Source: an uncultured virus (IMG/VR IMGVR_UViG_3300037840_000096)
Taxonomy: Duplodnaviria > Heunggongvirae > Uroviricota > Caudoviricetes
IMG/VR virus record: IMGVR_UViG_3300037840_000096
Strand: one strand, 5' to 3'
DNA length: 64,000 bases
The position numbers were made by a program, and so were the translations under genes. The notes below the pieces were generated by a model. That model did no database searches. It saw only the letters and a list, made by a program, of their open reading frames with translations, and was not told the DNA's origin. Shown here piece after piece: positions 1 to 62,670 of this stretch; position 1 is the first letter of the stretch, and every line of letters starts with the position of its first letter.

Positions 1-333
1 GAGAACATAACCTCTCGCACCCTTCAGATTCAGGAGGTAGAGGAAGCTGAAGGCAAGATGTGGACACTCAAACGTAGGATCAAGTTAGGTGAGAAGGCTC
101 TGCTCCGAGGGGAGCGGTTAGCACAACTGAACCTGCAAATTGCGAACCTGGAACGAGTAATCCAACTGGAGAATGAACTATGTCAAAGAGCAAAGTCCCT
201 ATGCCTGAAGCAAGAGAAACTCCGAAAGTGGTTGGCGGAAACGTGCCCACTGTGCGGCAGGACGGGGAAGCAGTTGGCATCTTCCTGGCTGACATGCACC
301 TCTCCGAGATGCCCCCGGTGTCCCGCTGTGTAG
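1..333 (+). CDS. C-terminal end of an SbcC/Rad50-like N-terminal-half protein (coiled coil ending in a zinc hook); partial at window edge
   Basis: Frame open from base 1; coiled-coil-like sequence followed by CPLCG; lies directly upstream of, and overlaps, the SbcD-like gene. Confidence 0.6.
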   Translation, partial: ENITSRTLQIQEVEEAEGKMWTLKRRIKLGEKALLRGERLAQLNLQIANLERVIQLENELCQRAKSLCLKQEKLRKWLAETCPLCGRTGKQLASSWLTCTSPRCPRCPAV

Positions 334-1208
334 AGTCTGGAACTGGCTGGTTGAAGGTTCAGAAGGAGTACATGCTTCAGTTGGCTGCTATTCAGTTGGT
401 TCACAAGTGTCCTATCTTTATCGCTGGGGACATCTTCAACAAGTGGGACTGCACCCCTCACCTTCTGAGCCATGCGATCTCATGGTTCAAGGAACTCCGG
501 GATGTGTATGCTATCCCAGGCAACCATGACATACCCAACCATAACAGAATGGAGCTAGGAAGATCGGCATTTTGGGTACTCGTGGAAGCTGGAGTTATTA
601 CCCCTCTGAGCGGCCTGGCAGGAATTGGGCCTTTGGTGGTATACCCGTTTCCCTATGGTTCCAAGGTGGAGAAGAGAGTCCAGAGTAGAAAGGATCTCTG
701 TCTGCATGTGGCTTTGATCCATGACTACATCTGGACGGCTGACACCGGCCATCCCTTCGCAGATGAGGGTAAGCGGGTCAAGCACTGGTATTCCAGATTG
801 GAAGGATACGATGTGGCGTTCTATGGAGACAACCACATTCCGTTCTCTGTGACAAAGGAGGGAAAATGTACAATCGTGAATGCTGGATGCTTTATCAAGC
901 GATCAGCAGACGAGATCAGTTTGGAACCCCGCGTATGGCTGCTGTTCTCGGATGGCTTCGTTTCCTTCAAGAAACTAAACACCTCACAGGACAGGTTCCT
1001 GGAGGCCAAAGGCGAGAAGGTCATGATGGAAAAGGCCCTGGAAATCGACCTGGCAGAATTCACGAACGAACTCCTGAGGCTGAACTCCCAGAGGCTGGAC
1101 TTCTGCCGGACGGTCCTGAGTTGGATCGAGAGGGCTAACATACCAGAGGACGTAAAATCCTACATGCTCCGAGCCATAGGGACTTTGGGAAAGAGAGGGC
1201 CATTGTGA
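180..1208 (+). CDS. SbcD/Mre11-like metallophosphoesterase DNA nuclease
   Basis: Motifs LADMHL, AGDIF, PGNHD, GDNHIP, NAGC. Confidence 0.85.
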   Translation: MSKSKVPMPEARETPKVVGGNVPTVRQDGEAVGIFLADMHLSEMPPVSRCVESGTGWLKVQKEYMLQLAAIQLVHKCPIFIAGDIFNKWDCTPHLLSHAISWFKELRDVYAIPGNHDIPNHNRMELGRSAFWVLVEAGVITPLSGLAGIGPLVVYPFPYGSKVEKRVQSRKDLCLHVALIHDYIWTADTGHPFADEGKRVKHWYSRLEGYDVAFYGDNHIPFSVTKEGKCTIVNAGCFIKRSADEISLEPRVWLLFSDGFVSFKKLNTSQDRFLEAKGEKVMMEKALEIDLAEFTNELLRLNSQRLDFCRTVLSWIERANIPEDVKSYMLRAIGTLGKRGPL

Positions 1209-1432
1209 AACCTCCCACGGTCAGGGAAGTAGAATCCCTGAAAGCCGAAGTGGAGAGAGACAGGCACGAACTCTCCCGATTGGAAGGGGTGGTCCAGCAA
1301 CTGAAGGGAACCCAGAAGACCCTACAGCAGTTGAAAGAAGAGTTAGAGACTTTGGTCACCCAGCGGGATAAACTAGAACAGCAGTTTCGAGAGGCTCTGA
1401 AGAAGTACACAGAGGAGTACGATCATGAGTGA
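1205..1432 (+). CDS. Small coiled-coil protein
   Basis: Heptad-rich 75 aa; start overlaps the upstream stop. Confidence 0.6.
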   Translation: MKPPTVREVESLKAEVERDRHELSRLEGVVQQLKGTQKTLQQLKEELETLVTQRDKLEQQFREALKKYTEEYDHE

Positions 1433-1721: not shown

Positions 1722-2307
1722 CCGAGACTCTGCGAGGGCATCCTCTGGCCTACGTCAGAAACTGAACAAGTCCCTCACCCAGCGGGATCTGGCTCAGGCG
1801 TCTCTGACCCGGCAAAAGCAAGAACTCTTAGAGGCTGAGAAAAACCTGGAGGCTGCTACGTTGGCCCAGCAGCACCTCCAAGCTCTCGCCCAATCCCTCC
1901 AAACCCAGGCCCACAAACAGATCGCCCAGGCTGTCTCCACCTGTCTCAACGCCGTCTTCACAGAGTTTGAGGAACCCTATGGATTCTCCATTCATTTTGA
2001 ACGCCGAAGGGGAAAGACCGAAGCTAGATTTCTTCTCGAACGACGCGGAAGGACTTTGTCTCCTGGAACTATTAGTGGGGGCGTGCGGGCTGTCGTTAGT
2101 GTTGCCTTGCGTATCGCACGCCTCTCACTACATCGGCCATCCTCCCGTAAGCTACTATGTCTGGATGAGCCCTTTCGAGGACTATCCCGTCAGAACCTGC
2201 GGAAGATGAACTCGCTCATAGAGACTTTGGCTCGGGATCTCGGGTTCCAGATTGTTCTGGTAACCCATGACGAAGAGATTTCGTGTGGAAAGGTTATCTC
2301 AATATGA
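1708..2307 (+). CDS. SbcC/Rad50-like ABC-ATPase C-terminal half
   Basis: Coiled coil, signature ISGG, Walker B LLCLDEP, H-switch VTHD; no Walker A. Confidence 0.8.
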   Translation: MRSTDRDSARASSGLRQKLNKSLTQRDLAQASLTRQKQELLEAEKNLEAATLAQQHLQALAQSLQTQAHKQIAQAVSTCLNAVFTEFEEPYGFSIHFERRRGKTEARFLLERRGRTLSPGTISGGVRAVVSVALRIARLSLHRPSSRKLLCLDEPFRGLSRQNLRKMNSLIETLARDLGFQIVLVTHDEEISCGKVISI

Positions 2308-2713: not shown

Positions 2714-3163
2714 CTATAGGACCCGGTACTGGCCTTGTAGTTCCACAGTAGACCCTGTTCCCGTGGTGCAGGTGAGTCCTTCCCCGCTATTCGTGTCTCC
2801 GTAACCACACTCCGAGAAGGGAAGAGTAAGAACAGTGTTGGCGGGGATGGTGAAGACCTGAGTGATGGCTGTGCCGGCTCCAGCAGGCTTGGAATTGAAA
2901 ACCACAGAGGTAGCTGTACCTCCAGCCTGGATGACCGCCTGAACGATCCTGAGCCGTCTGCCGGGCACGGCTGCAACCACTGCTCCGTCCGTTGTTGCAG
3001 ATGCAATGTTGGTCTGAAAGGGAAGAGTTCGCACCTTCTGCACTCCTGTATGTAGAGCAAAGTCCCTATGGGATTGCTTGGAAACCGGATGCCACCGCAG
3101 TGACTTCTGTTGGGTTCTGTGGGATGGTAACCTGGGAGTAGATGGTAGATGATAAAGCGCCAT
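2714..3163 (-). CDS. Hypothetical virion-associated protein (true start probably near 3040)
   Basis: Last gene of the structural block; rich in T/G/A. Confidence 0.5.
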   Translation of the reverse strand: MALYHLPSTPRLPSHRTQQKSLRWHPVSKQSHRDFALHTGVQKVRTLPFQTNIASATTDGAVVAAVPGRRLRIVQAVIQAGGTATSVVFNSKPAGAGTAITQVFTIPANTVLTLPFSECGYGDTNSGEGLTCTTGTGSTVELQGQYRVL

Positions 3164-4883
3164 CGGATGCCCTCACTAATCCTACCATAACAAAATAAGT
3201 TCCAGGTGCAAACGGACCAATGGTGGTGTTCAGTATTCTACCAGATACAGCCACCGAGTAGCTAGGTGGGTTCAGAGGATTAGGGACTACAACGTCTATC
3301 CAAATCAACCAGGAAGTAGCTGGGAACTGATCGGTATTCGCAGTGGGATACACACACTGCACGATGATGTTCCCTCCGGCCCTGGGATACAGCACAAGAT
3401 TCTGAGGGGCCGGGATCGGGGGTTCGTAGAGGCCCCCGGTGCTGTCTATCGTGATCGTGCTAATCGTAAACTGGTTCTGGCTCTGAAGCCCGTAGAGATC
3501 CTGTCTCCTAACCACCGCGTAGTAAGTCCACAAAGTCCCTATGGGTGGAGGAGTCAGGTTCACCGAGAAGGGCAAAGAGGCTGAGAACGCTGCCGGTGGT
3601 TGTGTGAGATCAGGAGGCCCGTTCAATCCCAGGTAAAGTAACCAGCCCTCTATTTGGTTCTGGACCCGGTAAGCTCCCACCTGAGAAGAGTTGATAATCA
3701 GAACTGCTACCTTGTAGCCACCTTCCTGAGAGGTGAAGATCCCAGAGGGGAGTGGTTGCAGTCTGAGTTGTTCGTAGTGCTGATAGTTCAGGTTCGGCAG
3801 ATCATCCCATCTCTGTGTTGTCTGGTGTGTAGGGGGAGGGGTAGGAAGCATCCCTTGTGGAATAGGCCAGTGCGTGAACTGCTCCCACCAGGAAGTAAGT
3901 ACCGACAGATCGTCCCATCTCTGAGAGGATTGTTGTGTTGGTGGTTTGGGTGGTATGAACCATTGAGCATAGGGACTTTGCTTGTAATTGCTCCACTCCT
4001 GCCAGTGATCGGGGAGGGTAACAATCACCTGGGAAAGCTGGTGTATCTCTGGCTGGCCAGGAACATAGCTAACCGGGATGGGTTGTAGTTTGAACTGCTC
4101 CCACCAGGAGTCCAGCACTGGCAGAGGAGTCTGGTCCTGGGAGGGTTGGCGAGTAGGAGGAGCGGGTGGTATGAACCACTGAGCATAGGGACTTTGCTTG
4201 TAGTTGCTCCACTCCTGCCAGTAATCCGATAGAGAGATCAGGACCTGGCTCGGCTGCGGATAAGGCACTGGTGCAGGAACCAAAGCCTTGACCGCTAGGG
4301 TGATAGCTCCCCACTGAGTAGAACCTCCCAACGCTGCTGTGTGACTACCCGTTGCTCCTTGTGCCTGGTTGGGTTTGTAGGCCACATCCAGGTTTATCAG
4401 GAGAGTGCCAATAGTTCCCAGATCCGTGAGAGCCCCGTCAGGTGTCATAGACTCCAGGACACCAGCAGTGCTAAAAGCACAGATCAGAAAGTCATTGGCT
4501 ACTGTGGTTGTGACACTGGATGCTGTAGCCGTGGTGCTGTTACCGGAGTTGGTGGTAGCTGCATCTGTAGAACTGGTGTCACTATTTTGGATGGCCAGAA
4601 CCCACACATCCGACTTGTCGATCATGCTAGTGTTGTTGAACGTCCAGGTAGACGGTTCACCACTGGCTGTTTTGGTGTATGCAGTTAGCGTTCCTCCGCT
4701 CCCGAGAGAGACAGACGCTGGAGAAGTCCACCCTGTAGGGTTTGCTGGCTTGCTGGTATTGCTGCACGTCTGGAAAGCAACCAGGCGATCCCCGTCTGCT
4801 GTGCCAGTTGGTTTGCTGACGCTGAACGTGGTTCCAGTCTGATCTGCCGTGGAAGAGGTAGATCGCAGGGATGGGTTTGGCAT
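3066..4883 (-). CDS. Putative tail/fibre structural protein with internal repeats
   Basis: S/T-rich beta-type N-domain, P/Q/W-rich repeat region, position in tail module. Confidence 0.55.
   Translation of the reverse strand: MPNPSLRSTSSTADQTGTTFSVSKPTGTADGDRLVAFQTCSNTSKPANPTGWTSPASVSLGSGGTLTAYTKTASGEPSTWTFNNTSMIDKSDVWVLAIQNSDTSSTDAATTNSGNSTTATASSVTTTVANDFLICAFSTAGVLESMTPDGALTDLGTIGTLLINLDVAYKPNQAQGATGSHTAALGGSTQWGAITLAVKALVPAPVPYPQPSQVLISLSDYWQEWSNYKQSPYAQWFIPPAPPTRQPSQDQTPLPVLDSWWEQFKLQPIPVSYVPGQPEIHQLSQVIVTLPDHWQEWSNYKQSPYAQWFIPPKPPTQQSSQRWDDLSVLTSWWEQFTHWPIPQGMLPTPPPTHQTTQRWDDLPNLNYQHYEQLRLQPLPSGIFTSQEGGYKVAVLIINSSQVGAYRVQNQIEGWLLYLGLNGPPDLTQPPAAFSASLPFSVNLTPPPIGTLWTYYAVVRRQDLYGLQSQNQFTISTITIDSTGGLYEPPIPAPQNLVLYPRAGGNIIVQCVYPTANTDQFPATSWLIWIDVVVPNPLNPPSYSVAVSGRILNTTIGPFAPGTYFVMVGLVRASDGALSSTIYSQVTIPQNPTEVTAVASGFQAIP
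3876..4222. repeat. Intragenic duplication with a 216-bp (72 aa) period
   Basis: 3948-4006 nearly identical to 4164-4222; 3876-3893 matches 4092-4109. Confidence 0.85.
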
Positions 4884-5237: not shown

Positions 5238-5262
5238 CGATCAATCACCAAAGTCCCTATGC

Positions 5263-7860: not shown

Positions 7861-8371
7861 TCTCCAGGAGTCGAATCACGGTGGTTTCCAGACGCCTGTA
7901 ATGAGCAAACACAATAGAGACTTTGGCTGGCACCTGCCAGAACGGTTCCTGAAGTTGCACTGGGTTCTGCCAATGCTCCACCGGCGGCACAAACGCTGGG
8001 ACAATAGGAGTGTGTTGTACTGTCTGTTGCCTTACCTCCACTTCTAACATTCCAAACTGCTGCTGGACTAAAGGAGGAGAGACAAACACGGGAAGAATAG
8101 GAATAGTTCTTCTGGGCTGCTGATCGAACCTTGGCTCCTCTGGAGTGTATCTCTTCTCCCGTACTAAAATGTACTCCTTCCAGATGTACTCGTAGGGGGG
8201 TACATGGATCAGTGGATAGTACAGCCAGTCATCCGCTGCTGGCCATGCACTGCGGTACTTGGACTCGTGTACCTTGGAGGGGATGAAGGGAATAGGCGAC
8301 AGTGGTGCGTAGGGTGTGTTCCCAACCCACGTCACCTGCCTGTTTGTAATTCCCTGCCAGGAGACAGCCAC
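7832..8371 (-). CDS. Hypothetical proline-rich protein
   Basis: Coupled ORF in the operon. Confidence 0.45.
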   Translation of the reverse strand: MAVSWQGITNRQVTWVGNTPYAPLSPIPFIPSKVHESKYRSAWPAADDWLYYPLIHVPPYEYIWKEYILVREKRYTPEEPRFDQQPRRTIPILPVFVSPPLVQQQFGMLEVEVRQQTVQHTPIVPAFVPPVEHWQNPVQLQEPFWQVPAKVSIVFAHYRRLETTVIRLLESGVPRILEH

Positions 8372-8373
8372 CC

Positions 8374-8823
8374 CTACCTCACGAATTGAGTTTCGCCAGA
8401 CCGCATGTTGTGAATGAGGGAGATCATCCCCTCCCGGTCGTACTGGAACTTGATCCCCTTGTCCATTTCGAAGTGACTGTCCTGAGCCACCTTTCTAAGA
8501 GCCCTGGCGACCAATAAGAACGCCTCCAAGGTGGTGAAGGTGAGCCTGTCTGTGTGGTCAAAGACAAGAGCCACCAGACCCTTGTGGTGGCTGAGTCTAA
8601 CCTGGGCCTGCTCTCTGGAGATGAGAGCAAAGTCCCTATGGGCTGTGAACTCTTTGGCCACATCTTTGACCACCTGCTCCATTGTCTTCGCGAGGTTGAA
8701 CGCATCCTCCCAATGAGTGATACAATAGTCACACTTCCGATCCAGAACCAGGAGCAAAGCCTTCGGCCTGTCCTGCACCTCTATCTGGAAGGTGACATTC
8801 TCGCCAAGGATCTTGCCAGGCAT
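8374..8823 (-). CDS. Hypothetical protein
   Basis: ATG with AGGAG upstream. Confidence 0.55.
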   Translation of the reverse strand: MPGKILGENVTFQIEVQDRPKALLLVLDRKCDYCITHWEDAFNLAKTMEQVVKDVAKEFTAHRDFALISREQAQVRLSHHKGLVALVFDHTDRLTFTTLEAFLLVARALRKVAQDSHFEMDKGIKFQYDREGMISLIHNMRSGETQFVR

Positions 8824-9753: not shown

Positions 9754-10788
9754 CTAAAACGCCGAGAAGCTGTCTAGGAACTGGTTGAGAGCAAAAGGAG
9801 TGGAGATTATTCCCAAAGGAGTCTGCCTCCACATCCAGATCCCTTGTTGTTGGTTAGGGAGCAAAGTCCCTATCTGTAACCCTGTGGGTGCCGTCAATCC
9901 GTAGTTCCAGGTCACTCCAGTAGGAGGTGTATTCTGGTTTGCCACGGTCTGGATCGCACTTCCTGATGCCTGGACTCCTCCTGGCTCCAGTCCCAGAACC
10001 ACTCCTGGGACTGGATAGACCACGTCGGTTAGATTCCCGGCCTGGGCTGGCAGGGTGAATGCCCCTCTTCCGGCCCCAGGAACAGTCAGGGTGTTACTGG
10101 TCCTTGCAGAGTAGTATACCACTTCTCGTGGACTTCCGCCAGAGGTTTGCACTTGACACCATCCCGTGGTGGGCCAATCAGCAAAAGATCCTGCTGTGGA
10201 GATGGTTCCTGCACCCGAGATTCCCAGGAATGCCGTGTTGGATATCTGCGGGGTTCCCAAAGTCGCTATCCATCTCTGCCAGGAAGAAACCGGAAAGGCT
10301 GCTTCGTTTCTGGCAATGGTTGCTCTGTAGTCGTTTAACTGTGTTCCCGACTGAGCAACAGTTACGTCATCGAACCCAAAGATCCCGTTCACGAGGTAGC
10401 TCAAAGTGATCGTGGAGGGTCCGCCGGCCAGGGGAGTAGTTGCTTGTATACGCAGGTATTGTCCAGGCTGTGGGCCTTCCACGATCTCGGTGTCTGCTAC
10501 CCCCGAGAAGTAGGCCGGCGTGCCCGCTGAGAGGCCGCTAGGTGCCCAGGAAAGGTGATTGGAGTCCACTACCAGAAGTGTTCCGGGGCCTATGGGATTG
10601 GCCCCTCCCGCGTACAAAACGTACAGGTTCGGGATGGGAGTGGCAATCTGTATACCCAGGGAGACAGCTTCCACGCTGGACCTGTACCCACCCAGGCTGT
10701 TGTCGGGGTTGGCTTGCAGCCCTCCATCTACGAGGGCACCAGTGATGTACTCCCGTACAGCATCTGCTCTTGTGTATAGTGCTGGCAT
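9754..10788 (-). CDS. Putative tail protein
   Basis: DPDNSLGGY-like N-terminus (NPDNSLGGY); G/T-rich; tail module. Confidence 0.5.
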   Translation of the reverse strand: MPALYTRADAVREYITGALVDGGLQANPDNSLGGYRSSVEAVSLGIQIATPIPNLYVLYAGGANPIGPGTLLVVDSNHLSWAPSGLSAGTPAYFSGVADTEIVEGPQPGQYLRIQATTPLAGGPSTITLSYLVNGIFGFDDVTVAQSGTQLNDYRATIARNEAAFPVSSWQRWIATLGTPQISNTAFLGISGAGTISTAGSFADWPTTGWCQVQTSGGSPREVVYYSARTSNTLTVPGAGRGAFTLPAQAGNLTDVVYPVPGVVLGLEPGGVQASGSAIQTVANQNTPPTGVTWNYGLTAPTGLQIGTLLPNQQQGIWMWRQTPLGIISTPFALNQFLDSFSAF

Positions 10789-10807
10789 TTTGTATATCCC
10801 AAAGTCC

Positions 10808-11326
10808 CTATGCTAAGATGGTCAGAGCGGGGTTGGAGTAGGTCACTTGTACCTGACCATCTGGTGGTGTTGGTGGTGTCACGATAAAGACATTGTACTG
10901 CCTGGGAGTTGCCTGGTTACCCAGGGAGTCCACAGCGATCACCTGATACTGATAGGGCCTCTCGTCTATCAGAGTGGGAGTCTGGTAGGTGTAGACCCAG
11001 GAGCCTTCCTCGAACTGGCTGCCAACAGTGATCCAATTCCCCGCTACGTTCTGCTGGATGAGGTAAGAATCTGCTCCAGGTTCTGAGTACCACTGCACAA
11101 CTAGGAAAGGTAGATAGAGTTCACTCTGGGCAAAGTCAGTGTCTACTACTTCCAGGGGTGGCGGAAAGGTGTTGTAGCCCTGTCCCTCCCAGGCATAACT
11201 GTTAGTTGTGGTGGTGGCTATCTGCTGGCCGTACAACACCACTCGGTAGGTGGTAGCCCCTGTAGAGTTCCAGGAGAACAACCAACTACCGCTGGACTGT
11301 TTCACGATGGAGGTGAACTGGATCAT
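10808..11326 (-). CDS. Fibronectin-III-like tail-associated protein
   Basis: W...GA..Y and YQYQVIAVDSLGN pattern. Confidence 0.5.
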   Translation of the reverse strand: MIQFTSIVKQSSGSWLFSWNSTGATTYRVVLYGQQIATTTTNSYAWEGQGYNTFPPPLEVVDTDFAQSELYLPFLVVQWYSEPGADSYLIQQNVAGNWITVGSQFEEGSWVYTYQTPTLIDERPYQYQVIAVDSLGNQATPRQYNVFIVTPPTPPDGQVQVTYSNPALTILA

Positions 11327-22319: not shown

Positions 22320-22333
22320 GACCAAAGTCCCTA

Positions 22334-44977: not shown

Positions 44978-45171
44978 TTTACCCGACCAAAGTCCCTATC
45001 GCCCTGGGAGATTAGCTGTGCTTCCCCGCATCGTCGCCGTGTACGTTCTGCTCCTGCTCTCCCTGCTGGGATGTGCATGTTTTATCATGACATGGCATCC
45101 CCTGGCAGGAGCAGGGTGTCTGATCTGTTCCGCACTCGCTCTGTTCCTCTCAGAGGAAAGGAGGTGAATCC

Positions 45172-48760: not shown

Positions 48761-48765
48761 AGACT

Positions 48766-49581: not shown

Positions 49582-49707
49582 TAAAAAGAGAGGGCCGGGA
49601 GGATTGCAGCTTCCCGGCCCTCCGCACCGCAGGGACCTTGAGATGTCAGAGTAGCACATCTCCCCTGGTGTGGCAAGGCCAGGTTCATCTGCAATAGAGA
49701 CTTTGCC

Positions 49708-50263: not shown

Positions 50264-50594
50264 ATAATATACATACTACAGTGAACCAGAGGAGAATAAG
50301 CATACCACGCCGGCCAGCGGCTCGCTGTCGCTCGCCCTGCCGGCAAGGTGTCTCCTGGTTGGTTCTGGTAGAAACATGGGAAGCAGATGAGAAAGCAGAA
50401 GATCCAATTCCCAGGTCGCTCTTGCCAGCACCTGCACCAATCCAAACTAGGAGAAAGGGATCATACTATTCCCCCAGGCTCGCCCGTCAGGGCCGGCACC
50501 CTCGCCAATGAAATCCAGGAAAGGGGAGCACGACCGCCTGGAGTAAAAAGGTCTTAAATGTAGGAATCCAAAGTCTCTATGGAGAAGCAAGCAC

Positions 50595-50807: not shown

Positions 50808-50823
50808 CAGGAGCAAAGTCACT

Positions 50824-51354
50824 ATGCGAATGCACGTTCGATGGATGATCCGCCGGGACATGGAGGAAGTTCTGGCGATAGAAAATACCCTGACAGAGGT
50901 TCCTCCCTGGGAAGAGGAAGACTTCCTTCGGCTTCTCCGGCAGCGGAACTGCATCGGGATGGCGGTGGAGGACACCAGCCTGGAGATTCCAGACCCTCTT
51001 GGCCCTGCCCATCCCGTAGTAGGATTCATGATCTACGGCCTGCACAAGTTCAAACTGGACCTCCTGCGGTTGGCTGTGCATCCCTCCTGGCGAAGGCAGG
51101 GAGTGGCCCGGAAGATGATGGAAGTCCTCTCCTCCAAGCTGTCCAGCCATCGGCGTTCAGTCATCTCCTGTATTCTTCAGGAGAGCAACCTCCAGATGCA
51201 GATGTTTTTCAAGCATCTGGGCTGGACGTGCAGCAAGATTCACAAGGATCACTTCGGTCCTGGTGAGCATGGGTACTACTTCTTCAAACGGTTCTTCCCG
51301 GTGAGTGAGGAAGAACTGGACTACCTGGAATCGCAAAGGAAAGAAAATGCCTGA
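50824..51354 (+). CDS. RimI-like GNAT N-acetyltransferase
   Basis: HVRWMIRRDM.EVL.IE, LRQRNCIGM, VVGFMIY, AVHP.WRRQGVAR, ESNL. Confidence 0.8.
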   Translation: MRMHVRWMIRRDMEEVLAIENTLTEVPPWEEEDFLRLLRQRNCIGMAVEDTSLEIPDPLGPAHPVVGFMIYGLHKFKLDLLRLAVHPSWRRQGVARKMMEVLSSKLSSHRRSVISCILQESNLQMQMFFKHLGWTCSKIHKDHFGPGEHGYYFFKRFFPVSEEELDYLESQRKENA

Positions 51355-51972: not shown

Positions 51973-52829
51973 AGATGTACCTACCCGACACCACCGTTCA
52001 AGCAGTGGTCTTCCTGGAACCCGAAAACAAGCAAAGTCTCTATGTCGTGGGCCGGGACGGCATGGACTTTTTCGAGTTCATGAACTGCTATGGCTCCGTG
52101 GCCAAACATGCCACGGGAGTCAACCTGGACGGCAGCGAGGAGAGGTTCTTCCTGGTCTGGGTGGCTGATTGCATGGATCCTCCCCTGGCTGTGGTGAGGG
52201 CAGACGATGCCTCTGATGCCCAGGAGTGGTTCGTGGAGGAACTGACCTGGGCTGATATCTCTGAGATGGATCTGGAGGACTACTACGGTGAGGATGGGGA
52301 GTTGTCGGAGTTTTGCTACTGGACAGGCAGGGGCAAATGGGCGAACACAGAGCAAATCGAGATGAGGGAGATTCATCTCCTGAGAGTGGAGGTAAGGTGA
52401 TGTTACTTGGGATCTTCAACTACGGCCAGCAGAAGACACCCACCCCTGACACTTTGGGAGTGGATCTGGGCTGGATTCGAGTGTACTACTCCTATACCAC
52501 AGTGGTAGCTATCAAGATTTGTGCCCCTGTCGGGTTCAAAAACAGACTCCTGATTTCCCAGAACATCTGGAGCAGGACCACAGGCAAGCACATAAACTGG
52601 ATCAAGGAACACAACGATATGGGATCTTCTGTAATCCATACCGTACCCAACGACCAGTTTGAGTCGATCTGTGCTCTCGTCTCGAACCTTATTCCCTACC
52701 CCAACTCGGACACCCGGATCGAGATTCTGGCCCTGATGGGAGATCCAGAAGCCCAGGAAATTATGAACAAGGGTTGACAACTCCACAGGCTCCTGATACT
52801 CTAGGAGCAGAAAGGCAAAGGAGCGACAG

Positions 52830-53906
52830 GTGGCGACTACGAACAAAGAAAAGACCCAACTCTGCCGATTCCAATATGCAGATGAGTGGATCACTTGCAA
52901 AGGTAAGACCTGCACTCTGGAGATCAACGTCTCCTGCATCCCGCAGAATTGGGATTTGTTTACCCAGGACGAGAAGACCTTCCTCGACTGGCTCACAGAC
53001 CACAACCAGATGCCCTCTCCTTTCGAGAGGGAGTTAACTTCTTCCCAGATGAGGAAGTTTCAAGAACTGGCTGCACGGTGTCAAGAGGAAATCCACGCGG
53101 ATGATCCTCTTGAGGAGAAGCCAGAAACTCCTCCGAAGGCAGCCAAAGTCCCTATGGACCCGAGGCCGGCCAGTGAGAACGGCTCCCTGAACCAGCATAT
53201 TGTTGCCCACGAAACCCGAAAGAGTGTGGTGGGCAACGTCCAGCAGAGGTTGGAGGGAGCCCAGAAGGTCATCGACAAGGTATCCACGGAAGCCTACTGG
53301 CTTGTGTGGTACTACATTCCAATCCAACTGGACCCAGAGGGTCTTAACCCGTCCAGAACCTTCCGACGACTTGGGTTCCGGTTCGATGGGTCCTGTTGGA
53401 TCATGCCCGAATCCAGCCTGAATTCCCCAGCGTTCAAGGAAGTGCTGGCGATGTGGGACGAATGGAAGGCTCCCACAGACGGCCGTCCTGGGATGGACTA
53501 CTGCTACATCAAACAGGATTCCGCCTACCAGAACATGCTTCGGGACAGGGCTTTGCTCTACCTGGAACGCACGGTGATGGATGCCCACACGTCCCTCATC
53601 ACCAGCATAGACTCTGCCAGCAAGAGCTACGACACGGCTATGAAGCTGGCAGAGGAAGCCGGAGACAACCTGCGGTCCAGGGAGGGGAAGAAGAAAGTGG
53701 ACAAGCTCCTCTCCCGCAGAATCTCCCATGTGAAGGGAGCCCTGAAGGAAGTCCGGGAGAAGCTGACAGCAGCGATAGAGTGTGCTGTTCTCTTCGACCA
53801 GAGCATGGCCATTCAGGACTTGCTGCGTGGACTCCGAGAGGTGATTGCCTCTGGGGATCAGGGTCTGAAAGTCCTCCAGGAAGCACGGGAACTCCACAAC
53901 GGGTGA
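52830..53906 (+). CDS. Hypothetical protein
   Basis: 358 aa; AAGGAG RBS. Confidence 0.6.
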   Translation: MATTNKEKTQLCRFQYADEWITCKGKTCTLEINVSCIPQNWDLFTQDEKTFLDWLTDHNQMPSPFERELTSSQMRKFQELAARCQEEIHADDPLEEKPETPPKAAKVPMDPRPASENGSLNQHIVAHETRKSVVGNVQQRLEGAQKVIDKVSTEAYWLVWYYIPIQLDPEGLNPSRTFRRLGFRFDGSCWIMPESSLNSPAFKEVLAMWDEWKAPTDGRPGMDYCYIKQDSAYQNMLRDRALLYLERTVMDAHTSLITSIDSASKSYDTAMKLAEEAGDNLRSREGKKKVDKLLSRRISHVKGALKEVREKLTAAIECAVLFDQSMAIQDLLRGLREVIASGDQGLKVLQEARELHNG

Positions 53907-53909: not shown

Positions 53910-54356
53910 GTGTCTGAGCAAGAGGCCATCCTGGGTGTACAGGGCATGCTGCATTCACTTGCAGCATCGTTCTCCCGCACCTATGGCCTGGATGCTCAGG
54001 AGTTGTTCCAGGAGGTTCAGATTCCTGCCCTCCTCGCCATCCGAAAGTGGCAGGAGGGTAAGGGGACGAAGCTCTCCACCTACGTCTACCTCTGCGTGAA
54101 GAGGTGGTTGATATCCAAAGGCAGGCGAAAACAACACAAGATGGAGCAGATTCCCATAGGGACTTTGCCTGCCCGGAGCTTCTCCCTGCGTAGGTTGTTC
54201 ACGGATCTAAACACTGATCTTGCCAAGATTGCTGTGAGGCTTGCCCTGGCCGGGCTGTCGCAGCGGGAGATCATAAAAAGCCTCCAGGAGGACTTTGCTC
54301 TGGAGGTAGAGGAAATCGGCCAGGTGTTCCGAGAAGTAAGAGAGGCTCTATCATGA
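53910..54356 (+). CDS. Sigma-70-like factor (compact)
   Basis: ELFQE...ALLAIRKW...KG.KLSTY (region 2-like); C-terminal GLSQREI. Confidence 0.6.
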   Translation: MSEQEAILGVQGMLHSLAASFSRTYGLDAQELFQEVQIPALLAIRKWQEGKGTKLSTYVYLCVKRWLISKGRRKQHKMEQIPIGTLPARSFSLRRLFTDLNTDLAKIAVRLALAGLSQREIIKSLQEDFALEVEEIGQVFREVREALS

Positions 54357-55275: not shown

Positions 55276-56661
55276 ATGACCAAACTCAAACCCTTCCAGA
55301 GGGAGGATGTGGACAGGATTCACTCTCTGGAGGGGCGAGTCCTGCTGGCTAACGAGTTAGGTCTGGGTAAGACTTTGGAGGCCCTTACCTGGCTGGTGGA
55401 GAGCAAGGCTTTCCCCGCATTGGTAGTTTGCCCTGCTTTCCTGAAGCCTCACTGGAAAAGAGAAGCCTGGAGGCACTGTAGGCTGCGATCCACCGTTCTC
55501 TCCACCACCAGAGCTAATATGAAAGCCCTGCATGGTGAGGGGCTGTTCATCGTGAACTACGAGATCCTGCAATACTGGCGAAAGAGGCTACAAAAGAAGG
55601 GGTTCCAGACCCTCATCGCTGATGAGATCCACTATGTAGGGGCTATCAAGGCCAGGAGAACAAAGTCTCTAACTCTCCTGGCCCGAGAAGTTCCCTACTT
55701 CCTTGGCCTGTCTGGAACGCCTCTCACAAACAGACCCTGGGAGTTGTTTCCCATCCTGCGTATTCTCCACCCAGAGAAATACGACTCGCCTCTTGCTTTC
55801 GGATTTGAGTTTTGTGAGCCATCTCGCGTATTCGGTAGATGGGAGTTTCGTGGGGCTAGAAACCTGGAGGGGCTGCACGAACAGTTGTTGGAATTCATGA
55901 TTCGACGAAGGAAGGTGGATGTTCTGGATCAGTTGCCTACCATGCGGAGGTTCGTGATTCCTCTGGAGATAGAGAGGAGAGAGGAATATGACGAAGCCCA
56001 CGCGGATGTGGTAAAGTGGCTAGCCAAGACCGACAAGGCAGCAGCACTCAGGGCCAAGCGTGCAGAGGGCCTTGCCAGGTTCTCTTACCTGAAACAACTG
56101 GCAGCGAAACTCAAACTCAAGAACTTTCTGGCCTGGTTGGATTCCCACCTGGAGGAAGCAGAGGGGAAAGTGCTAGTGGGAGTGATTCACCACTCTACAC
56201 GGGAAGCCATCCTGGAGCATTACAGCAAAGTCCCTATGAGGTCCTCGGCAACGCCGGGGCTTTCTGTCACCATCCACGGCAAACAATCCCAGGTGAAGAA
56301 GGACAGAGCGGAGACTGCCTTCAGAACCGATCCCAGGGTTCGTTTGCTGGTGGGGCAGATGAAAGCCTGCGGAGTAGGATTGAATCTCCCAGAGGCAAGT
56401 AGCGTGGTTCACTGTGAACTACCCTGGGCTCCAGGTACGGTGAGGCAGTTTGCCGGCAGGGCTCACCGTATGACTTCTACAGGGCAAGTGGATGAGTTCT
56501 TCCTGATTGCTCAGGGGACTGTAGAAAAAGATATCTGCCGAATCCTGGAGAAGAAGTCCAAGACCCTGGATAGGGTTCTAGATGGTGTAGTAGAGAGCGA
56601 CGAAAGCCTGACAGTGTACGACGAGTTGTGTCAGGCTCTGAAGGAAAGGAACAGAAGGTAA
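55276..56661 (+). CDS. SNF2-family helicase
   Basis: ELGLGKT, DEIH, LSGTP..N, GVGLNL, GRAHR. Confidence 0.9.
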   Translation: MTKLKPFQREDVDRIHSLEGRVLLANELGLGKTLEALTWLVESKAFPALVVCPAFLKPHWKREAWRHCRLRSTVLSTTRANMKALHGEGLFIVNYEILQYWRKRLQKKGFQTLIADEIHYVGAIKARRTKSLTLLAREVPYFLGLSGTPLTNRPWELFPILRILHPEKYDSPLAFGFEFCEPSRVFGRWEFRGARNLEGLHEQLLEFMIRRRKVDVLDQLPTMRRFVIPLEIERREEYDEAHADVVKWLAKTDKAAALRAKRAEGLARFSYLKQLAAKLKLKNFLAWLDSHLEEAEGKVLVGVIHHSTREAILEHYSKVPMRSSATPGLSVTIHGKQSQVKKDRAETAFRTDPRVRLLVGQMKACGVGLNLPEASSVVHCELPWAPGTVRQFAGRAHRMTSTGQVDEFFLIAQGTVEKDICRILEKKSKTLDRVLDGVVESDESLTVYDELCQALKERNRR

Positions 56662-57162: not shown

Positions 57163-58026
57163 ATGGAATTCACTGATCTGTTGGATGAGCATGGTGTGGC
57201 TTACCACGTTACAGGAGCCAAGTGTACCCAGGGATGGGTGAACTTCACCTGCCCGTGGTGCATGCGTGATCCCTACATGGGCTACAACATTCAGAACAGG
57301 TATGTTTCCTGCTGGAACTGTGGCTATCACCCTCTGGGAATGACTCTCCGGCTCCTTACTGGATTGTCACTTCCAGAGTGTTTTCGCCTAACAGCAGAGT
57401 TTCCCAGGCTGTTCCTGGGGCACAAACCCCACACCGGGAGGTACAAAGAGCCTCCGAATCTGGAGCCTTTGACTACCTCTGGTCTTCACAGAGACTATTT
57501 AGCAAACAGAGGGCTTTGGCCGGCAATCGTATCCAAAATGTGGGGAGTGAGGGCCATAGGGCCTTTGGGAGGCAGGATGAAGTGGAGACTCTGGATTCCC
57601 ATTCATCTGAGAGGAGAAATAGTCTCCTGGACAACCCGACACATCTCCCCGGAGAACCCTCTTCGCTACCTGAACGCTCCTGATGAGGAATCCTCCTACC
57701 CAGTGAGCGATCTCCTGTATGGAATTGACCATGCCAGGTGTGCCATCATCGTAGTGGAAGGCCCCGTGGATGTGTGGAAGATCGGGCCTGGAGCGGTAGC
57801 CACTTTGGGAACCAACGTAACCCCCACCCGGCTGCTCCAGATCGCCAGATTTCCCTACCGGGTGGTGTGTTTCGATAACGAACCGGATGCTCAGGTACGA
57901 GCAAAGTCTCTATGCAAAGAACTCTCCATGTACCCAGGGACCACGAAGAATGTAACCCTGGATTCCAAGGACCCAGGTTTCTGTACCCCACAGGAACTGG
58001 ACTCTCTCAGGAGGTTAATTTTGTGA
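57163..58026 (+). CDS. DNA primase (Zn finger plus TOPRIM)
   Basis: CPWC...CWNCG; IVVEGPVD; CFDNE. Confidence 0.85.
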   Translation: MEFTDLLDEHGVAYHVTGAKCTQGWVNFTCPWCMRDPYMGYNIQNRYVSCWNCGYHPLGMTLRLLTGLSLPECFRLTAEFPRLFLGHKPHTGRYKEPPNLEPLTTSGLHRDYLANRGLWPAIVSKMWGVRAIGPLGGRMKWRLWIPIHLRGEIVSWTTRHISPENPLRYLNAPDEESSYPVSDLLYGIDHARCAIIVVEGPVDVWKIGPGAVATLGTNVTPTRLLQIARFPYRVVCFDNEPDAQVRAKSLCKELSMYPGTTKNVTLDSKDPGFCTPQELDSLRRLIL

Positions 58027-58767: not shown

Positions 58768-59505
58768 ATGTCCTTTATGAAGGAAGAACCCAGAGATCCC
58801 AGGGCGGCGTACATAGCCCAAAGTCTCTATGCCAAACTCAGGGAGAAGAAAGTTCTGTACACGGGGGCTTCCCTCCGCTCCATGAGATCCTGCGTGTATG
58901 AGCTAGTGAAAAAACACGGTCTGGAGGAAGTGGAGAAAGCCCTGGAGTGGTATGGCAATCATCTGGGAGAGGAGTGGGTTCCGCATGCCTACTCTGGTAG
59001 CTCACTCCGGGTGAAGTTCGACCAGATCCACCAGGCCATGCAGAGGATAGCAGAAGAAGCTCCACCAGAGGAGATCAGCGAGGAAGCAAAAAGACTGGCT
59101 ACATGGGCCATGAAAAACTGGTCCTGGCCAGCAGCGATAGAGGCATCTCTGGAGACGGTGATCCAAAAGTCTCTGGAAAACTGGAGGTCTTTCTCCCAGA
59201 GAATAGAGACTTTGGTCAGGAAGCCCTATATGAAGGCCATGCTTCGGGAGGTTGATTTTATCACCCGAATTCAGGTCATGTACTCCCCCACGTTCCTCCA
59301 GCAATGGCTGGAACTCCTGCACGAGGCTTACGGATGGCAAAGTCATTATCTGGGAAGGATGAACAAGCTCGTGTTCCAACCGGGATCTGTACTATTCCGG
59401 GAACATATGTGGAGGGGATGGGCTCAGGTATGGACAGGATCAGCGACCGCATTCGACAGTCTGTTGAAGTCGCTGCTGATATCCTCCGGGGAGAAGCAAA
59501 CGTGA
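58768..59505 (+). CDS. Hypothetical replication-region protein
   Basis: EEVEKALEWY...S..SLR.KFDQI; AGGAG RBS. Confidence 0.5.
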   Translation: MSFMKEEPRDPRAAYIAQSLYAKLREKKVLYTGASLRSMRSCVYELVKKHGLEEVEKALEWYGNHLGEEWVPHAYSGSSLRVKFDQIHQAMQRIAEEAPPEEISEEAKRLATWAMKNWSWPAAIEASLETVIQKSLENWRSFSQRIETLVRKPYMKAMLREVDFITRIQVMYSPTFLQQWLELLHEAYGWQSHYLGRMNKLVFQPGSVLFREHMWRGWAQVWTGSATAFDSLLKSLLISSGEKQT

Positions 59506-60364
59506 AAGGAGAGTGGGAAGGCGTGATGCTGGTGGATCTCAAGCCAGGGGACATAGTGGAGTACCCGGAAGACGAACCCTGCGACACGTTTTCAGTTGTG
59601 AGTGTGGAACTTCGACCGTCAGAACTGGTTCGGATTCGGATGACAAGGTTGGACAACGGAGCAGAGCAGAGGATGTTTATGGCTGGAGGCCAGATAATCA
59701 GGAGAAAAGTTGTGAGTGAACTCACTCCCGCTGCTCTGGCAGCAACCGCGAAGATAATCCTGTCTGTTTTTCACGATAAAGACGACTGCCTAGGTGAGAT
59801 AGCCCACAGGACCATCGGCCTCCAGGTCATGGAGATTCTGACCCTGCTGGATATAGATGCACAACCCCACTTCGACCAAATCCTGGAGCACATGCTCTCC
59901 TACCTGGATAATAACTGCCAGGCTGGTTATTTGCGAGTTCTGCAAGATTTCCTCATGGAGGCGAATGTGGTCCCTCCCTATCTTGCTCTGGTTCTCATGG
60001 TCTGTACAACCCTGGGCCGGTGCAGGCAGTGGGTTCAGAACACCATGAAGAGCCAGCCCAATCATCAAGCACAGCAAGTCTCCAGTTCCCTGAACAAATT
60101 GGAGAAGTGCATGCGGGTCATGCGGTTTGGGGTGCTGGAGGGAAGTAGAGGGGGAAATCATGAGTGAATCACGTTGGGTACATCTGAATGTAGAAAGAGT
60201 CCAGGCAGCTACAGAAAAAGCTGCCTTGTGCTTCCTGGAGGATCGTGAAGAGGAAGTCTGGATTCCTTTCTCCCAGATGGAAGATCCAGACAACGTGTCG
60301 GTGGGGGATAAGAACTGCACTATCTCGGTCACCAGATGGTGGGCTGAGAAGCAAGGGATAGAAG

Positions 60365-61798
60365 ATGAAGGTTGAGGAGTTCGACGGAGCCAGAGAGCAG
60401 GAAGCTCTGTTTCTCTGCGTGAAGGTAACAGAGTTTCTCTCCAGGGTCGCGGGAAGGATTGGCAAAGATCCCTGGAGAGCGAAATCCTCTAATCTGATTT
60501 GGAAATGGAGTGAGGAGTATTTCGCCAGGTACAAGCAGGCCCCTGATAGAGAGATCATGGCTCCTTTTCAGGAATGGGCCAGAAAATCAGGAAAAGACGA
60601 AGCTAGCCACAAGAACATAGACCGGCTTCTCTCCTGGATTCTTGACAGAGAAGTAGCAAAGTCCCTATCCCTGGCTCATGCCCTAGATAGGGCTCAGGAG
60701 CATCTGAATGACGTGCGGCTGGGAAGGCATCTGGAGGAACTTACGAGGTTTCGAGAGCAAGGACAGGTAAGGGAAGCCCTAGTTTGTGTGCAGAGTTTCG
60801 TGAAGCTGGATCTGGAATCAGCACCCTATGTGGACGTGCTGCGGGATCTGGCAGCACATAAAGAGGCCCTGGAAGCGTCTCAGAGGGTTCTGGTGGAGAT
60901 GCCGGGAGCAGCGGGAGAGTTCTTTGGCAACGAGCTATCTGAGAACGCCTTCGTGGCTTTTATGGCTGCTGCCAAAGGTGGAAAGTCTTACGCCCTCCTG
61001 GACATTGCCTGGCGGGCCTTTCGGCAGGGCAGGAAAGTGGCCTACTTCCAAGTAGGTGACCTTTCGCGGGATCAGATAATTCGCAGGTTCCAGCGTAGAA
61101 TCGTATACCGAAAGCTGGAACCTGGGATTTTCCAGAAACCAGTACGCATTACCGTTCCCAGCGAATCTCGTGGGCTGGCTGTCGTGGAGTATGAGCAGAA
61201 GGAGTTCACGAGAGAGGTGTCCTTCGCGAAACTTAACAAAGCCATAGAGACTTTGGCCGGCTCCCGGCCTGATCCTGATTCGGGTGGGGAGTTACGGCTT
61301 TCTTACCATCCGATCAAAACTGTGTCTACGGTAGACATAAAAAACATTCTGGATTCCTGGGACCAAAGTGGTTTCCAGAGCCAGGTGATTTGCGTAGACT
61401 ATGCTGGCAACCTTGCCCACTCTGGTGCCAGCAGGGATTTCGACAACATCTCCCAGACCGCTCATACCTGGGCCATGTTGCGGCAGTTGTCAGAGGTGCG
61501 GAAGTGTTTGGTGGTTACGGCCAACCAGACCAACAAGGAAGGGTTCACTTCCTGGGTGCTAACCCGAAAGAACTTTGCAGATTCCAAGATGATTCTTGCA
61601 CACTGCACCGCTTTCCTTGGCGTGAACATGACAGATGAGGAGAAGCAGAGAGGCATCCTGCGATATAACTTCGTCGTAAGACGAGAGGATGCCTACAGTG
61701 AGTCGTTCTGTTTGTATGCGGGGAGCTATCTGGCGGCTGCTGACCCGCTTGCAGTTACAACCTTGCCGCCGAAAGGGTTCCCAGCAAAGCTGGGATGA
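60365..61798 (+). CDS. DnaB-like replicative helicase
   Basis: Walker A AAAKGGKS, ICVDY, VTANQTN. Confidence 0.8.
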   Translation: MKVEEFDGAREQEALFLCVKVTEFLSRVAGRIGKDPWRAKSSNLIWKWSEEYFARYKQAPDREIMAPFQEWARKSGKDEASHKNIDRLLSWILDREVAKSLSLAHALDRAQEHLNDVRLGRHLEELTRFREQGQVREALVCVQSFVKLDLESAPYVDVLRDLAAHKEALEASQRVLVEMPGAAGEFFGNELSENAFVAFMAAAKGGKSYALLDIAWRAFRQGRKVAYFQVGDLSRDQIIRRFQRRIVYRKLEPGIFQKPVRITVPSESRGLAVVEYEQKEFTREVSFAKLNKAIETLAGSRPDPDSGGELRLSYHPIKTVSTVDIKNILDSWDQSGFQSQVICVDYAGNLAHSGASRDFDNISQTAHTWAMLRQLSEVRKCLVVTANQTNKEGFTSWVLTRKNFADSKMILAHCTAFLGVNMTDEEKQRGILRYNFVVRREDAYSESFCLYAGSYLAAADPLAVTTLPPKGFPAKLG

Positions 61799-62670
61799 AA
61801 GGGGATGAGAATGGCTTTTCGTGAGTTCAAAGAATCCCAGGAGGGAGGAGGTAACTCCGTTGGGGATTTCAAAAACGCAGCCAACAGTCAAGCGAAGAGA
61901 AGGCGTTTGGTCAGTGTGGCTACATACTACAATCCCGATCACTCCATTCACGGGAGGATTTGTATTCGTGCAGTCCACGCCGACGCCAATCCAGTCCTCA
62001 CCCTGCATACCGCAGCGGCCCTGGAGGTGGTGAAGGGCATCCTGGAGAACCTCCCAGACTCTGTGATTCTGGACGAGGAACTCCAGAGGATTATCAGCGA
62101 AAGGATCGGGAGGGCCTCTGGAGTGCAAGAAACCCAAAGCGAATCGGAGGGATCGTGACCACACCGCAGAAACTGAGAATTCTGAAGCAGGAAGCCACTC
62201 TGTTCCGGGACGGCAAAGTCCCTATCTACCTGATGCCCGATGGCAGGTTTGCCTGCTGCTGGGGAGGGAAATGGCTGGTCAGGGCCAGCGTAAAGTCGCT
62301 GGAGAAACACACCAACGCTCACAGACCCTTCGTGAAGTTGATGTGTGTCGCAGAGAACTTTCCTTCCTATCAGGACATGGCTCCCGTGGTGATGGAAGTC
62401 TCTGACATGCAGCAGTCCTACGTTTTCGACAAGGAGGGGAAACGCCGGACCCGGCATTCTGGGTGCTGGACGAGGTACGATTCTGAGTTGTATGCTCAAG
62501 CTCTGGCTCTGGAGAAGAAACGCTTGAAATACCAGGAAGAACTCCAGGCAGAGTACGAAAAGATCCGGGAAGCTGTCAGAGGGAGGAGGATCTATCCTTC
62601 TTCTTTCAAGGATCTCCTGGAGAAGGAAGAGGAAGAAGAGGAGTAGTTTCGCCCGACAGGAGAGCAATGG

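Follow-up and report, generated by a model that had tools for sequence, protein, structure and literature searches.

The 64,000-nucleotide stretch of DNA analyzed here (the window) comes from an uncultured virus of the Caudoviricetes (IMG/VR record IMGVR_UViG_3300037840_000096) and contains, scattered along it in both orientations, a short DNA word with the core AAAGTCNCTAT (reverse complement ATAGNGACTTT). The presence of this word and its strong over-representation are confirmed: the window holds 67 exact matches (37 on the plus strand and 30 on the minus strand) versus 0.11 expected (standard deviation 0.35, largest count 2, in 100 dinucleotide-preserving shuffles). Analysis of the encoded proteins, codon usage and intergenic copies shows that the object of selection is the DNA word itself, not a peptide or a codon preference. 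Attention had been drawn to the word by an earlier note on the same DNA (hereinafter, the original prediction), and the core was reconstructed from the peptides listed there. The range of 191..62226 given in that note agrees with the first site, located at 192..202, but the last one, at 63193..63203, lies past its end.

The window is part of a larger genome. An IMG/VR contig of 18,113 bp (L039) joins the two ends of the window, matching each with 100% identity, which implies a circular assembly of 76,852 bp. The 12.85 kb outside the window holds 11 more sites, so that the whole genome contains 78 (45 plus, 33 minus). In one public run, the genome is assembled into one contig of 76,847 nt, and in a second run, its contigs are fragmented; both runs are labeled soil metagenome, and there is no RNA run among the public runs listed as carrying the phage. 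A sequencing or assembly artifact is ruled out, given that the phage is identical in the contigs of the two runs and in fragments of two IMG/VR records, and that the reading frames stay open. The two runs, compared over positions 1-20000 of the window, show no differing letters.

In the 67 window sites, the base 5' of the core is C in all but one (66 of 67), and the variable base of the word is C in 38, T in 22, A in 4 and G in 3; the flanking preferences are weak (G at -4, A at -3, G or C at -2, G at +11 in 43 of the 67 sites, and G or C at +12). The full consensus is (G/A)A(G/C)C-AAAGTC[C>T>>A,G]CTAT-G(G/C), with the top form GAGC-AAAGTCCCTAT-GG. In the aligned window sites, conservation ends outside a footprint of about 17 bp, so that the word is a compact asymmetric site and not a piece of a longer repeat; together with its flanks, it lacks dyad symmetry. 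Across the whole genome, the 12-mer CAAAGTC(C/T)CTAT is present in 70 copies with C or T, and other copies with one mismatch number only 6.

Selection on the word and its cost to proteins

The gene model of the window is based on codon usage (the whole genome has 106 gene models and is 90.6% coding) and leaves 23 window sites not wholly within a gene. The others are read in sense frame 0 (12 sites, encoding KVPM, KVSI, KVTI, KVAM, KVSM or KVTM, that is, KV[PSTA][MI]), sense frame 1 (6 sites, QSPY or QSLY), sense frame 2 (6 sites, AKSLC, AKSLS, AKSLW or AKSLF and, in one case, AKSL*, which terminates gene 11323-12384), antisense frame 0 (16 sites, IGTL, IETL or IATL) and antisense frame 1 (4 sites, HRDF or NRDF). 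The remaining antisense frame reads TAG, and the plus-strand sites at 3059..3069 and 10801..10811 supply the stop codons of the minus-strand open reading frames (ORFs) 3066-4883 and 10808-11326. The word therefore spans all six frames, five of them coding and the sixth through stop codons, exactly as had been claimed: every peptide listed in the original prediction is found where it was said to be, both stops ending the genes at 3066 and 10808 are located, and the gene assignments (SbcD, SbcC half, tape measure, head protease, TerL, SNF2, primase, DnaB and ORF 8374-8823) all hold. The word followed by G also makes an ATG, which is used as the start codon of ORFs 10808-11326 and 32831-33085. 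The coding sites of the window comprise 24 in the sense and 20 in the antisense orientation, the ratio predicted by three sense frames and two antisense frames being open.

When codons are shuffled synonymously such that the proteins are kept, 0.51 (shuffling within genes) or 0.40 (genome-wide) sites are left of the 42 located entirely within shuffled codons, and no more than 3 in any of the 200 shuffles of each type; such a peptide-preserving shuffle had been named as the control that could overturn the claim of selection on the DNA, and it leaves that claim standing. In the window, 43 of the 50 positions at which the peptide is compatible with the word actually spell it. The compatible peptides are themselves over-represented (67 positions in the whole genome versus 7.8 +/- 2.8 in amino-acid-shuffled proteins, with a maximum of 19 in 200, an 8.6-fold excess), which indicates that the protein sequences themselves are bent. 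Furthermore, the word uses minority codons: outside it, ATA accounts for 15% of isoleucine, CTA for 7% of leucine and AGT for 15% of serine. Taken together, the loss of sites upon shuffling, the excess of compatible peptides, the minority codons and the intergenic copies demonstrate selection on the DNA word rather than on peptide or codon use.

The further claim that the word shapes essential proteins stands for the permissive parts of these proteins but not for their conserved cores, given that in conserved proteins the word is found at variable or unalignable residues. In TerL, KVAM occupies a position where the family has K[MLCEI]A[LVQE] (19 homologs, 62-69% identity), and NRDF coincides with a conserved W-N-x-x-F motif and is present also in two of the 19 homologs. 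In SbcC, the protease and the primase, the word residues align without indels to variable positions of five complete relatives, and in SbcD, the capsid protein, the portal and SNF2, they belong to segments that do not align with these relatives. There is no bias to protein termini, with 11 of the 57 genic sites in the first or last tenth of the protein. The lack of four-codon indels, combined with the variability of the residues involved, shows that at the alignable sites the word, as judged from these alignments, arose by substitution at permissive, poorly conserved residues. A 12-bp mobile insertion unit is ruled out at these sites (TerL, the SbcC half, the protease and the primase), where no indels of this size are detected. 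Among 120 TerL homologs (including the TerL of the window itself), word peptides are absent in 91, present once in 27 and twice in 2, of which one is the window TerL, a comparison of low power given that TerL has two sites.

The 78 sites are spaced evenly along the genome. The coefficient of variation of the gaps is 0.656 compared with 0.98 +/- 0.10 under random placement (none of 5000 simulations is as low), the largest gap is 3,121 bp, and only 2 gaps are shorter than 200 bp versus 14.3 expected. Each strand alone is less even (coefficients of 0.92 and 0.80), so that the evenness belongs to the combined set. The order of strands along the genome is random (runs test z = -0.25), and orientation is tied neither to transcription nor to that of adjacent sites. 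Sites that are not wholly genic are enriched 2.6-fold (21 of 78 versus 10% expected; P = 2.5e-5), with the other 57 inside genes, and several intergenic sites, of both orientations, take up spacers of 20-40 bp between genes. From the orientation predicted by open frames, the even spacing and the scarcity of near-misses, we infer that the word is read as a duplex, either way round, by a single sequence-specific factor requiring about one site per kilobase.

One pair of sites, at 44419..44429 (minus) and 44459..44469 (plus), makes up a perfect inverted repeat (44416-44472) in which the word and its flanks form arms of 18 nt (44416-44433 and 44455-44472) around a 21-bp spacer with a small hairpin of its own. 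The pair is located between divergent genes, and the cumulative GC skew, calculated in 4-kb windows, is lowest in the one ending at 44 kb. This repeat is a candidate origin or master operator.

Relatives and bacterial genomes

The best named relative detected by tblastn with TerL is Croceibacter phage P2559Y, with 39% identity; megablast and tblastn searches of named phages with two regions of the window produce no match. A large uncultured clade, with contigs of about 75-80 kb, is represented in metagenomes. A scan of IMG/VR with a 15-mer form of the word identifies 34 stretches, and no other phage has more than a single match; the only contig with multiple matches (L011/L012, 18,113 bp) is the same phage. 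A scan of IMG/VR with the single TerL protein retrieves only an identical fragment, and TerL alignment scans give a best match with 59% identity among the matches listed. Of the TerL-relative loci of at least 8 kb (54, among 80 matches listed), 53 lack the site and one has a single copy; a further 46 loci of relatives include 43 without the site and 3 with one. The five complete relatives, with TerL sequences 41-49% identical, contain 2, 0, 2, 0 and 0 sites; the two sites in each of the relatives G006 and G008 are taken as chance occurrences, given that the preceding C is missing and that they are located outside shared genes. On the sequences compared, the word is lineage-specific.

The IMG/VR locus L041, one of these three further loci with one site and with a TerL 59% identical to that of the window, contains a single word (L041:3465-3475) within the WNRDF codons of TerL, orthologous to the window site at 37130; this site reflects either chance codon choice or an ancestral seed site. 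The five complete relatives do not have a both-strand word of their own, and the most widely dispersed words found in them are either A-rich and of low complexity or limited to 16 copies at most, the majority on one strand. Over-represented 9-mers in the loci of relatives were rejected as comparable words because they are tandem arrays, clustered intergenic repeats or single-strand promoter-like motifs. For example, L043:250-773 contains 9 copies of TTGGAGTCCTA(T) within about 500 bp, with a core that resembles the word of the window; L052:14479-20902 contains 7 one-strand copies of GTGATACTACCCCTGTACC over 6.4 kb; and L047:11663-12335 contains clustered AAATGTAGTTCCTAGGA repeats. All three are probably promoters or regulatory arrays.

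A search of the representatives of 185,579 species with a 16-mer form of the word identifies 101 stretches with one match each, and the 80 of these loci that were fetched contain exactly one core site each. In five Bacteroidota genomes, the 7-18 sites detected do not exceed the control with the reversed word, and among 401 Bacteroidota genomes, a 13-mer form matches 26, at most twice each. A metagenome scan with the 16-mer gives, among the matches listed, 119 stretches, 118 with one core site and one with two. A double match in Dyella humi was rejected as a duplicated gene unrelated to the phage (the genome has 5 core sites); in the first 6.6 kb of the contig involved, two paralogous segments separated by 2.7 kb have about 80 nt in common, with the 16-mer inside this shared stretch, a coincidence. 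Given the absence of the word from relatives and from the bacterial genomes searched, its reader is most likely encoded by this phage.

The candidate reader and competing explanations

The explanation that is tentatively preferred here is that a DNA-binding protein of the phage could use the sites, dispersed as they are, for loading or binding, with a ParB-family protein as the candidate. The sites would be nucleation points from which this protein marks, organizes or silences the phage chromosome, in the manner of Noc at its scattered binding sites (NBS). The best candidate reader would be a full-length protein of the ParB/Noc/KorB family (444 aa), the gene for which starts on the plus strand at 63287, 83 bp downstream of the last site, and continues outside the window (63287..64000; L039:1766-3097). 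The inverted pair at 44416-44472 would then be its strongest site. A PHROGs search matches this protein to ParB-like partition proteins (E 4.9e-8); its translation contains GARRL, located at what we take to be the place of the ParB arginine box, followed by a helix-turn-helix-like stretch; and its neighbors in the ESM Atlas are ParB_N plus HTH_ParB clusters, Noc and Spo0J among them. No ParA-like partner is found among the Pfam and PHROGs matches of the phage proteins. Another member of this family, RK2 KorB, has 12 operators. A close parallel is Noc, a single ParB-family protein that nucleates at many 16-bp sites dispersed over the chromosome, from which it spreads (PMC8429893), and the phage likewise encodes a ParB_N plus HTH_ParB-like protein.

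A second candidate is a protein of the ParB/Srx superfamily (DUF6551; 48664..49581, plus strand) with a DGxxR-type motif in its translation. The search for DUF6551 identifies 381 representatives, the alignment of which is highly divergent. A gene with a weak SAM-methyltransferase fold (47258-47989) is located nearby, and a search of solved structures with both proteins yields weak matches or none. Further candidates are a small sigma-like protein (53910-54356) and an ORF with a weak helix-turn-helix match (58249-58578). The ParB-family, DUF6551 and methyltransferase-like genes have no tblastn match in the five relatives that lack the word.

Several considerations weigh against the ParB-family explanation. 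That last absence is weak evidence because other accessory ORFs are absent too: no called ORF in the 40.4-55.1 kb region, nor most other accessory ORFs, matches the five relatives. The relatives compared at the DNA level are distant (TerL identity of 41-59%), closer ones (62-69%) being known as protein records only. Sites of the ParB family are characteristically palindromes of 14-16 bp, and the parS and NBS oligonucleotides shown in PMC8429893 are palindromic; the phage word, in contrast, is asymmetric apart from the one inverted pair, with its 21-bp spacer, found among the 78 sites. The 16-mer host scan depends on the flanking bases of the phage, so that host sites with other flanks would escape it; the reader may also be encoded by the host. 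The connection between the word and any protein is one that we infer, and nicking, modification and recombination fit the same statistics.

Both-strand nicking is the main rival and ranks second, although by itself it appears unlikely. Here, a phage enzyme would nick virion or replicating DNA at each word, on whichever strand carries it, and the swivel points thus created, roughly one per kilobase, would release torsional stress or make the DNA more flexible during packaging or ejection, with either strand serving. Such a function is independent of orientation and compatible with even spacing, and the depletion of close pairs would avoid double-strand breaks. A possible enzyme exists in the form of the second ParB/Srx-superfamily protein, given that some members of this superfamily nick DNA. 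The known nick consensuses of T5, phiKMV-like phages and Pseudomonas phage tf are short, asymmetric, sharply defined, lineage-specific and partly coding, and the phage word is equally sharp and lineage-specific; in the 46 kb of phage tf, TACTRTGMC occurs 14 times, or 17 when single substitutions are counted (PMC3517423). However, in all these phages the 4-14 sites per genome are on one strand (PMC3517423), whereas the word has 78 sites on both strands. In addition, two opposite-strand sites are only 40 bp apart, and Pfam and PHROGs searches of the phage proteins recognize no HNH, GIY-YIG or other nuclease besides SbcCD. The ends of assembled contigs in the two runs, which carry no information on nicks, are not tied to the word except at the internal repeat of one gene described below.

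A recombination or anti-nuclease signal similar to Chi is an improbable explanation. The word would switch a helicase-nuclease from degradation to repair, the nuclease being a host enzyme of the RecBCD/AddAB type or the SbcCD/RecA of the phage, and a circularly permuted genome would need both orientations everywhere. Even coverage is what the spacing provides, and the gene complement of the phage includes SbcD, a split SbcC and a RecA-like protein. Some lambdoid phages indeed accumulate Chi: in LLS and MD8 this short recognition word is gathered to about one per 1-2 kb, with 23 sites, or one per 1.86 kb, in LLS (PMC12315714). In these phages, however, the sites are strongly biased to one orientation (20 of the 23 in LLS, all 32 in MD8) and recombination genes of their own are missing, and Chi is a host-abundant 8-mer (PMC12315714). 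In the present phage, orientation is unbiased, recombination genes are present, and the word has 11-12 fixed bases and is enriched in none of the genomes searched.

Equally doubtful is a function analogous to the stoperators of Cluster A mycobacteriophages, where a monomeric phage repressor would bind the word genome-wide and block transcription. Repressors of the L5 gp71 type bind more than twenty asymmetric 13-mers, which are distributed over the genome and located at promoters and in short spaces between genes (PMC9283540), and the phage word resembles these in being asymmetric, of similar length, present in tens of copies and enriched between genes. The inverted pair within a divergent control region and the small ORF with a weak helix-turn-helix match are further points of agreement. 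Nevertheless, stoperators are oriented with transcription and lose function upon reversal (PMC9283540), whereas the orientation of the word follows frame availability only and the majority of its sites (57 of 78) are genic. Furthermore, neither an integrase nor an immunity repressor is recognized by Pfam or PHROGs, in scans that leave about two thirds of the ORFs without a family, and the gene content looks lytic.

The remaining explanations are less plausible still. Modification of a base within the word by a phage enzyme, with the mark separating self from non-self, would be consistent with the methyltransferase-fold gene near the ParB/Srx gene, neither of which is found in the five relatives, but is very unlikely, given that the methyltransferase matches are weak and resemble small-molecule enzymes and that a modification target needs neither enrichment nor even spacing. 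No better placed is the possibility that the word is the priming site of the phage primase or propagates through biased gene conversion with no benefit to the phage. Okazaki fragments are similar in length to the spacing of about 1 kb, GTC, the recognition triplet of the T7 primase, is part of the word, and the phage primase has a zinc-finger-like CxxC...CxxC motif. Primases, however, typically read 3 nt, not 12, and there is no strand switch matching the direction of replication.

The comparison with the uptake sequences of Pasteurellaceae (USS) and Neisseriaceae (DUS), which was made in the original prediction, is apt with respect to the pattern but not to membership in the class. Uptake sequences, too, are short and asymmetric with weak flanks, occur about once per kilobase in either orientation, and are found in coding sequence in all frames, at poorly conserved residues, with an approximately 2-fold excess of the encoded tripeptides (Findlay and Redfield 2009, PMC2817400). 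The differences are that the carrier is a phage rather than a competent bacterium, that relatives share neither the word nor a dialect of it, that near-misses are rare, and that the tetrapeptide excess in the phage is about 8.6-fold compared with the 2-fold value for tripeptides (PMC2817400). A signal spread over the genome of the host, for example an uptake sequence, that the phage shares would account for the uptake-like pattern (PMC2817400) but is the least credible of all explanations considered, because the 185,579 species representatives gave only isolated 16-mer matches, Bacteroidota are at chance level, and 118 of the 119 metagenome stretches listed have one core site. We know of no DNA-uptake step in phages.

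Genome-wide recognition words are known in few forms, namely uptake sequences, Chi, FtsK-orienting sequences, stoperators and phage nick sites, and for several of these classes the reader or the purpose took decades to find. The phage word fails a defining feature of every known system with which it was compared, and searches of open-access texts for an equivalent, which returned nick-site phages, Chi-rich lambdoid phages and unrelated papers, found no orientation-free, coding-embedded word of such density in a phage. It is possible, if on balance doubtful, that the word belongs to a phage self-word system of an undescribed kind, in which a self-encoded reader (a ParB-type clamp loader, a both-strand nickase or something else) would recognize, organize or protect phage DNA as opposed to host DNA. 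If so, this would be a viral counterpart of bacterial uptake or Chi words, with the virus as both writer and reader and its proteins bearing a measurable cost. With 78 near-perfect copies, the 8.6-fold distortion of tetrapeptides, even spacing and no orientation rule, the word is among the cleanest cases of its kind that could be found, and the combination of a short exact word and a small genome makes the question of the reader directly testable with a handful of candidate proteins. If the reader is indeed encoded by the phage, this protein and its 12-17 bp site would constitute a compact and programmable-looking pair, as well as a new example of self-recognition by a virus.

Individual sites and gene content

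Matches of the window proteins to PHROGs and Pfam identify a tailed phage and assign the SbcD-like gene (180-1208), the C-terminal half of SbcC (1708-2307), the tape measure gene (14035-18840), a major-capsid-like gene (23386-24663), and the genes for the head protease (25621-27621), portal (34878-36713), TerL (37007-38458), SNF2 helicase (55276-56661), primase (57163-58026) and DnaB-like helicase (60365-61798); of the ORFs scanned, about two thirds match no family.

Among the sense sites in frame 0, the plus-strand ones encode KVPM in the SbcD-like gene (192..202), in ORF 46641-47156 (46704..46714), in ORF 52830-53906 (53145..53155) and in the SNF2 helicase (56227..56237), and KVTM in the GNAT-like ORF 50788-51354 (50815..50825). 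Those on the minus strand encode KVSI in ORF 7832-8371 (7914..7924), the tape measure (18032..18042) and the head protease (26861..26871), KVTI in ORF 21006-21497 (21250..21260) and the trypsin-like ORF 33125-33919 (33414..33424), KVAM in TerL (37437..37447) and KVSM in the weakly TerS-like ORF 39156-40196 (40075..40085). In frame 1, minus-strand sites encode QSPY twice in ORF 3066-4883 (3969..3979 and 4185..4195), in the major-capsid-like gene (24598..24608) and in the head protease (26437..26447), as well as QSLY in ORF 13002-14033 (13704..13714); the single plus-strand site specifies QSLY in ORF 51726-52400 (52033..52043). Frame 2 is represented on the minus strand by AKSLC in ORF 29835-30218 (30119..30129), AKSLF in ORF 31541-32083 (32017..32027), AKSLW in ORF 40413-41087 (40661..40671) and the terminal AKSL* of ORF 11323-12384 (11325..11335, which also provides the ATG of ORF 10808-11326), and on the plus strand by AKSLC in the primase (57903..57913) and AKSLS in the DnaB-like helicase (60658..60668).

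The antisense sites are mostly on the plus strand. These correspond to IGTL in the 605-aa ORF 3066-4883 (3532..3542), ORF 9754-10788 (9863..9873), the tape measure (15578..15588 and 15800..15810) and ORF 38464-38856 (38738..38748); to IETL in the tape measure (14378..14388 and 15014..15024), ORF 18833-19369 (18918..18928) and ORF 20323-20994 (20981..20991); to IATL in ORF 9754-10788 (10259..10269) and the tape measure (16817..16827); and, in frame 1, to HRDF in ORF 8374-8823 (8629..8639) and the portal (36597..36607) and NRDF at the family-conserved WN..F position of TerL (37130..37140). The minus-strand antisense sites specify IGTL in the SbcD-like gene (1176..1186) and the sigma-factor-like gene 53910-54356 (54156..54166), and IETL in the SbcC C-terminal half (2218..2228), ORF 45172-45762 (45598..45608) and the DnaB-like helicase (61244..61254). 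Four sites are within uncertain gene calls: 22324..22334 (plus) in ORF 21948-22613, 23358..23368 (plus) in ORF 22784-23494, and 58820..58830 (plus) and 59203..59213 (minus) in ORF 58678-59505.

Outside genes or at their borders, a plus-strand site (5250..5260) fills the 25-bp gap between ORFs 4896-5237 and 5263-5736, and the minus-strand site at 33084..33094 provides the ATG of ORF 32831-33085. Other minus-strand sites are 2 bp from ORF 19775-20389 (19762..19772), between ORF 24620-25567 and the head protease gene (25604..25614), 3 bp from ORF 49708-50199 (49694..49704) and in further intergenic regions (29713..29723, 34417..34427 and 46219..46229). The plus-strand sites include one 5 bp from the head protease gene (27627..27637), two in the long non-coding region 41088-42244 (41181..41191 and 41298..41308), one 84 bp upstream of the methyltransferase-like gene (47163..47173), the one upstream of the ParB-family gene mentioned above (63193..63203), and the intergenic sites at 44989..44999, 50570..50580 and 62215..62225.

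Two plus-strand sites, 44989..44999 and 46704..46714, are located directly 3' of the two copies (44953-44984 and 46672-46703, 88% identical) of a 32-nt element that resembles the T-arm and the 3' acceptor end of a tRNA (GGTTCGACTCC... then TCCGGTCCA), with paired changes between the copies in the T-stem. Neither copy folds better than shuffled sequences or is matched by ARAGORN or Rfam, which also detect no tRNA and no RNA family, respectively, in the phage DNA as a whole. The element could be an attachment-site remnant or a tRNA-like element. In ORF 3066-4883, an internal direct repeat of about 50 nt within 3945-4215 contains the word twice, at 3969 and 4185, and in the low-coverage run, two contigs abut at 4199/4200, beside the second copy.

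The additional 12.85 kb encodes a GroES-like protein, a UDG-like domain with a 3'-5' exonuclease, a family A polymerase, a clamp-loader-like ATPase, the RecA-like protein, ThyX, a dCTP-deaminase-like protein and the N-terminal half of SbcC. The phage has a replisome of its own, and its gene content looks lytic. The GroES (Cpn10) homolog is encoded at L039:3320-3730, and the UDG-superfamily domain is fused to the 3'-5' exonuclease of a split family A polymerase (L039:5098-6390). The sigma-like protein at 53910-54356 (148 aa) matches sigma-70 region 2. The SbcC/Rad50-like ATPase is split as well, with the N-terminal half at L039:14714-15661, ending at position 333 of the window, the C-terminal half at 1708-2307, and the SbcD-like gene along with two small ORFs in between; both the SbcD-like gene and the gene for the C-terminal half of SbcC are present in the five complete relatives.

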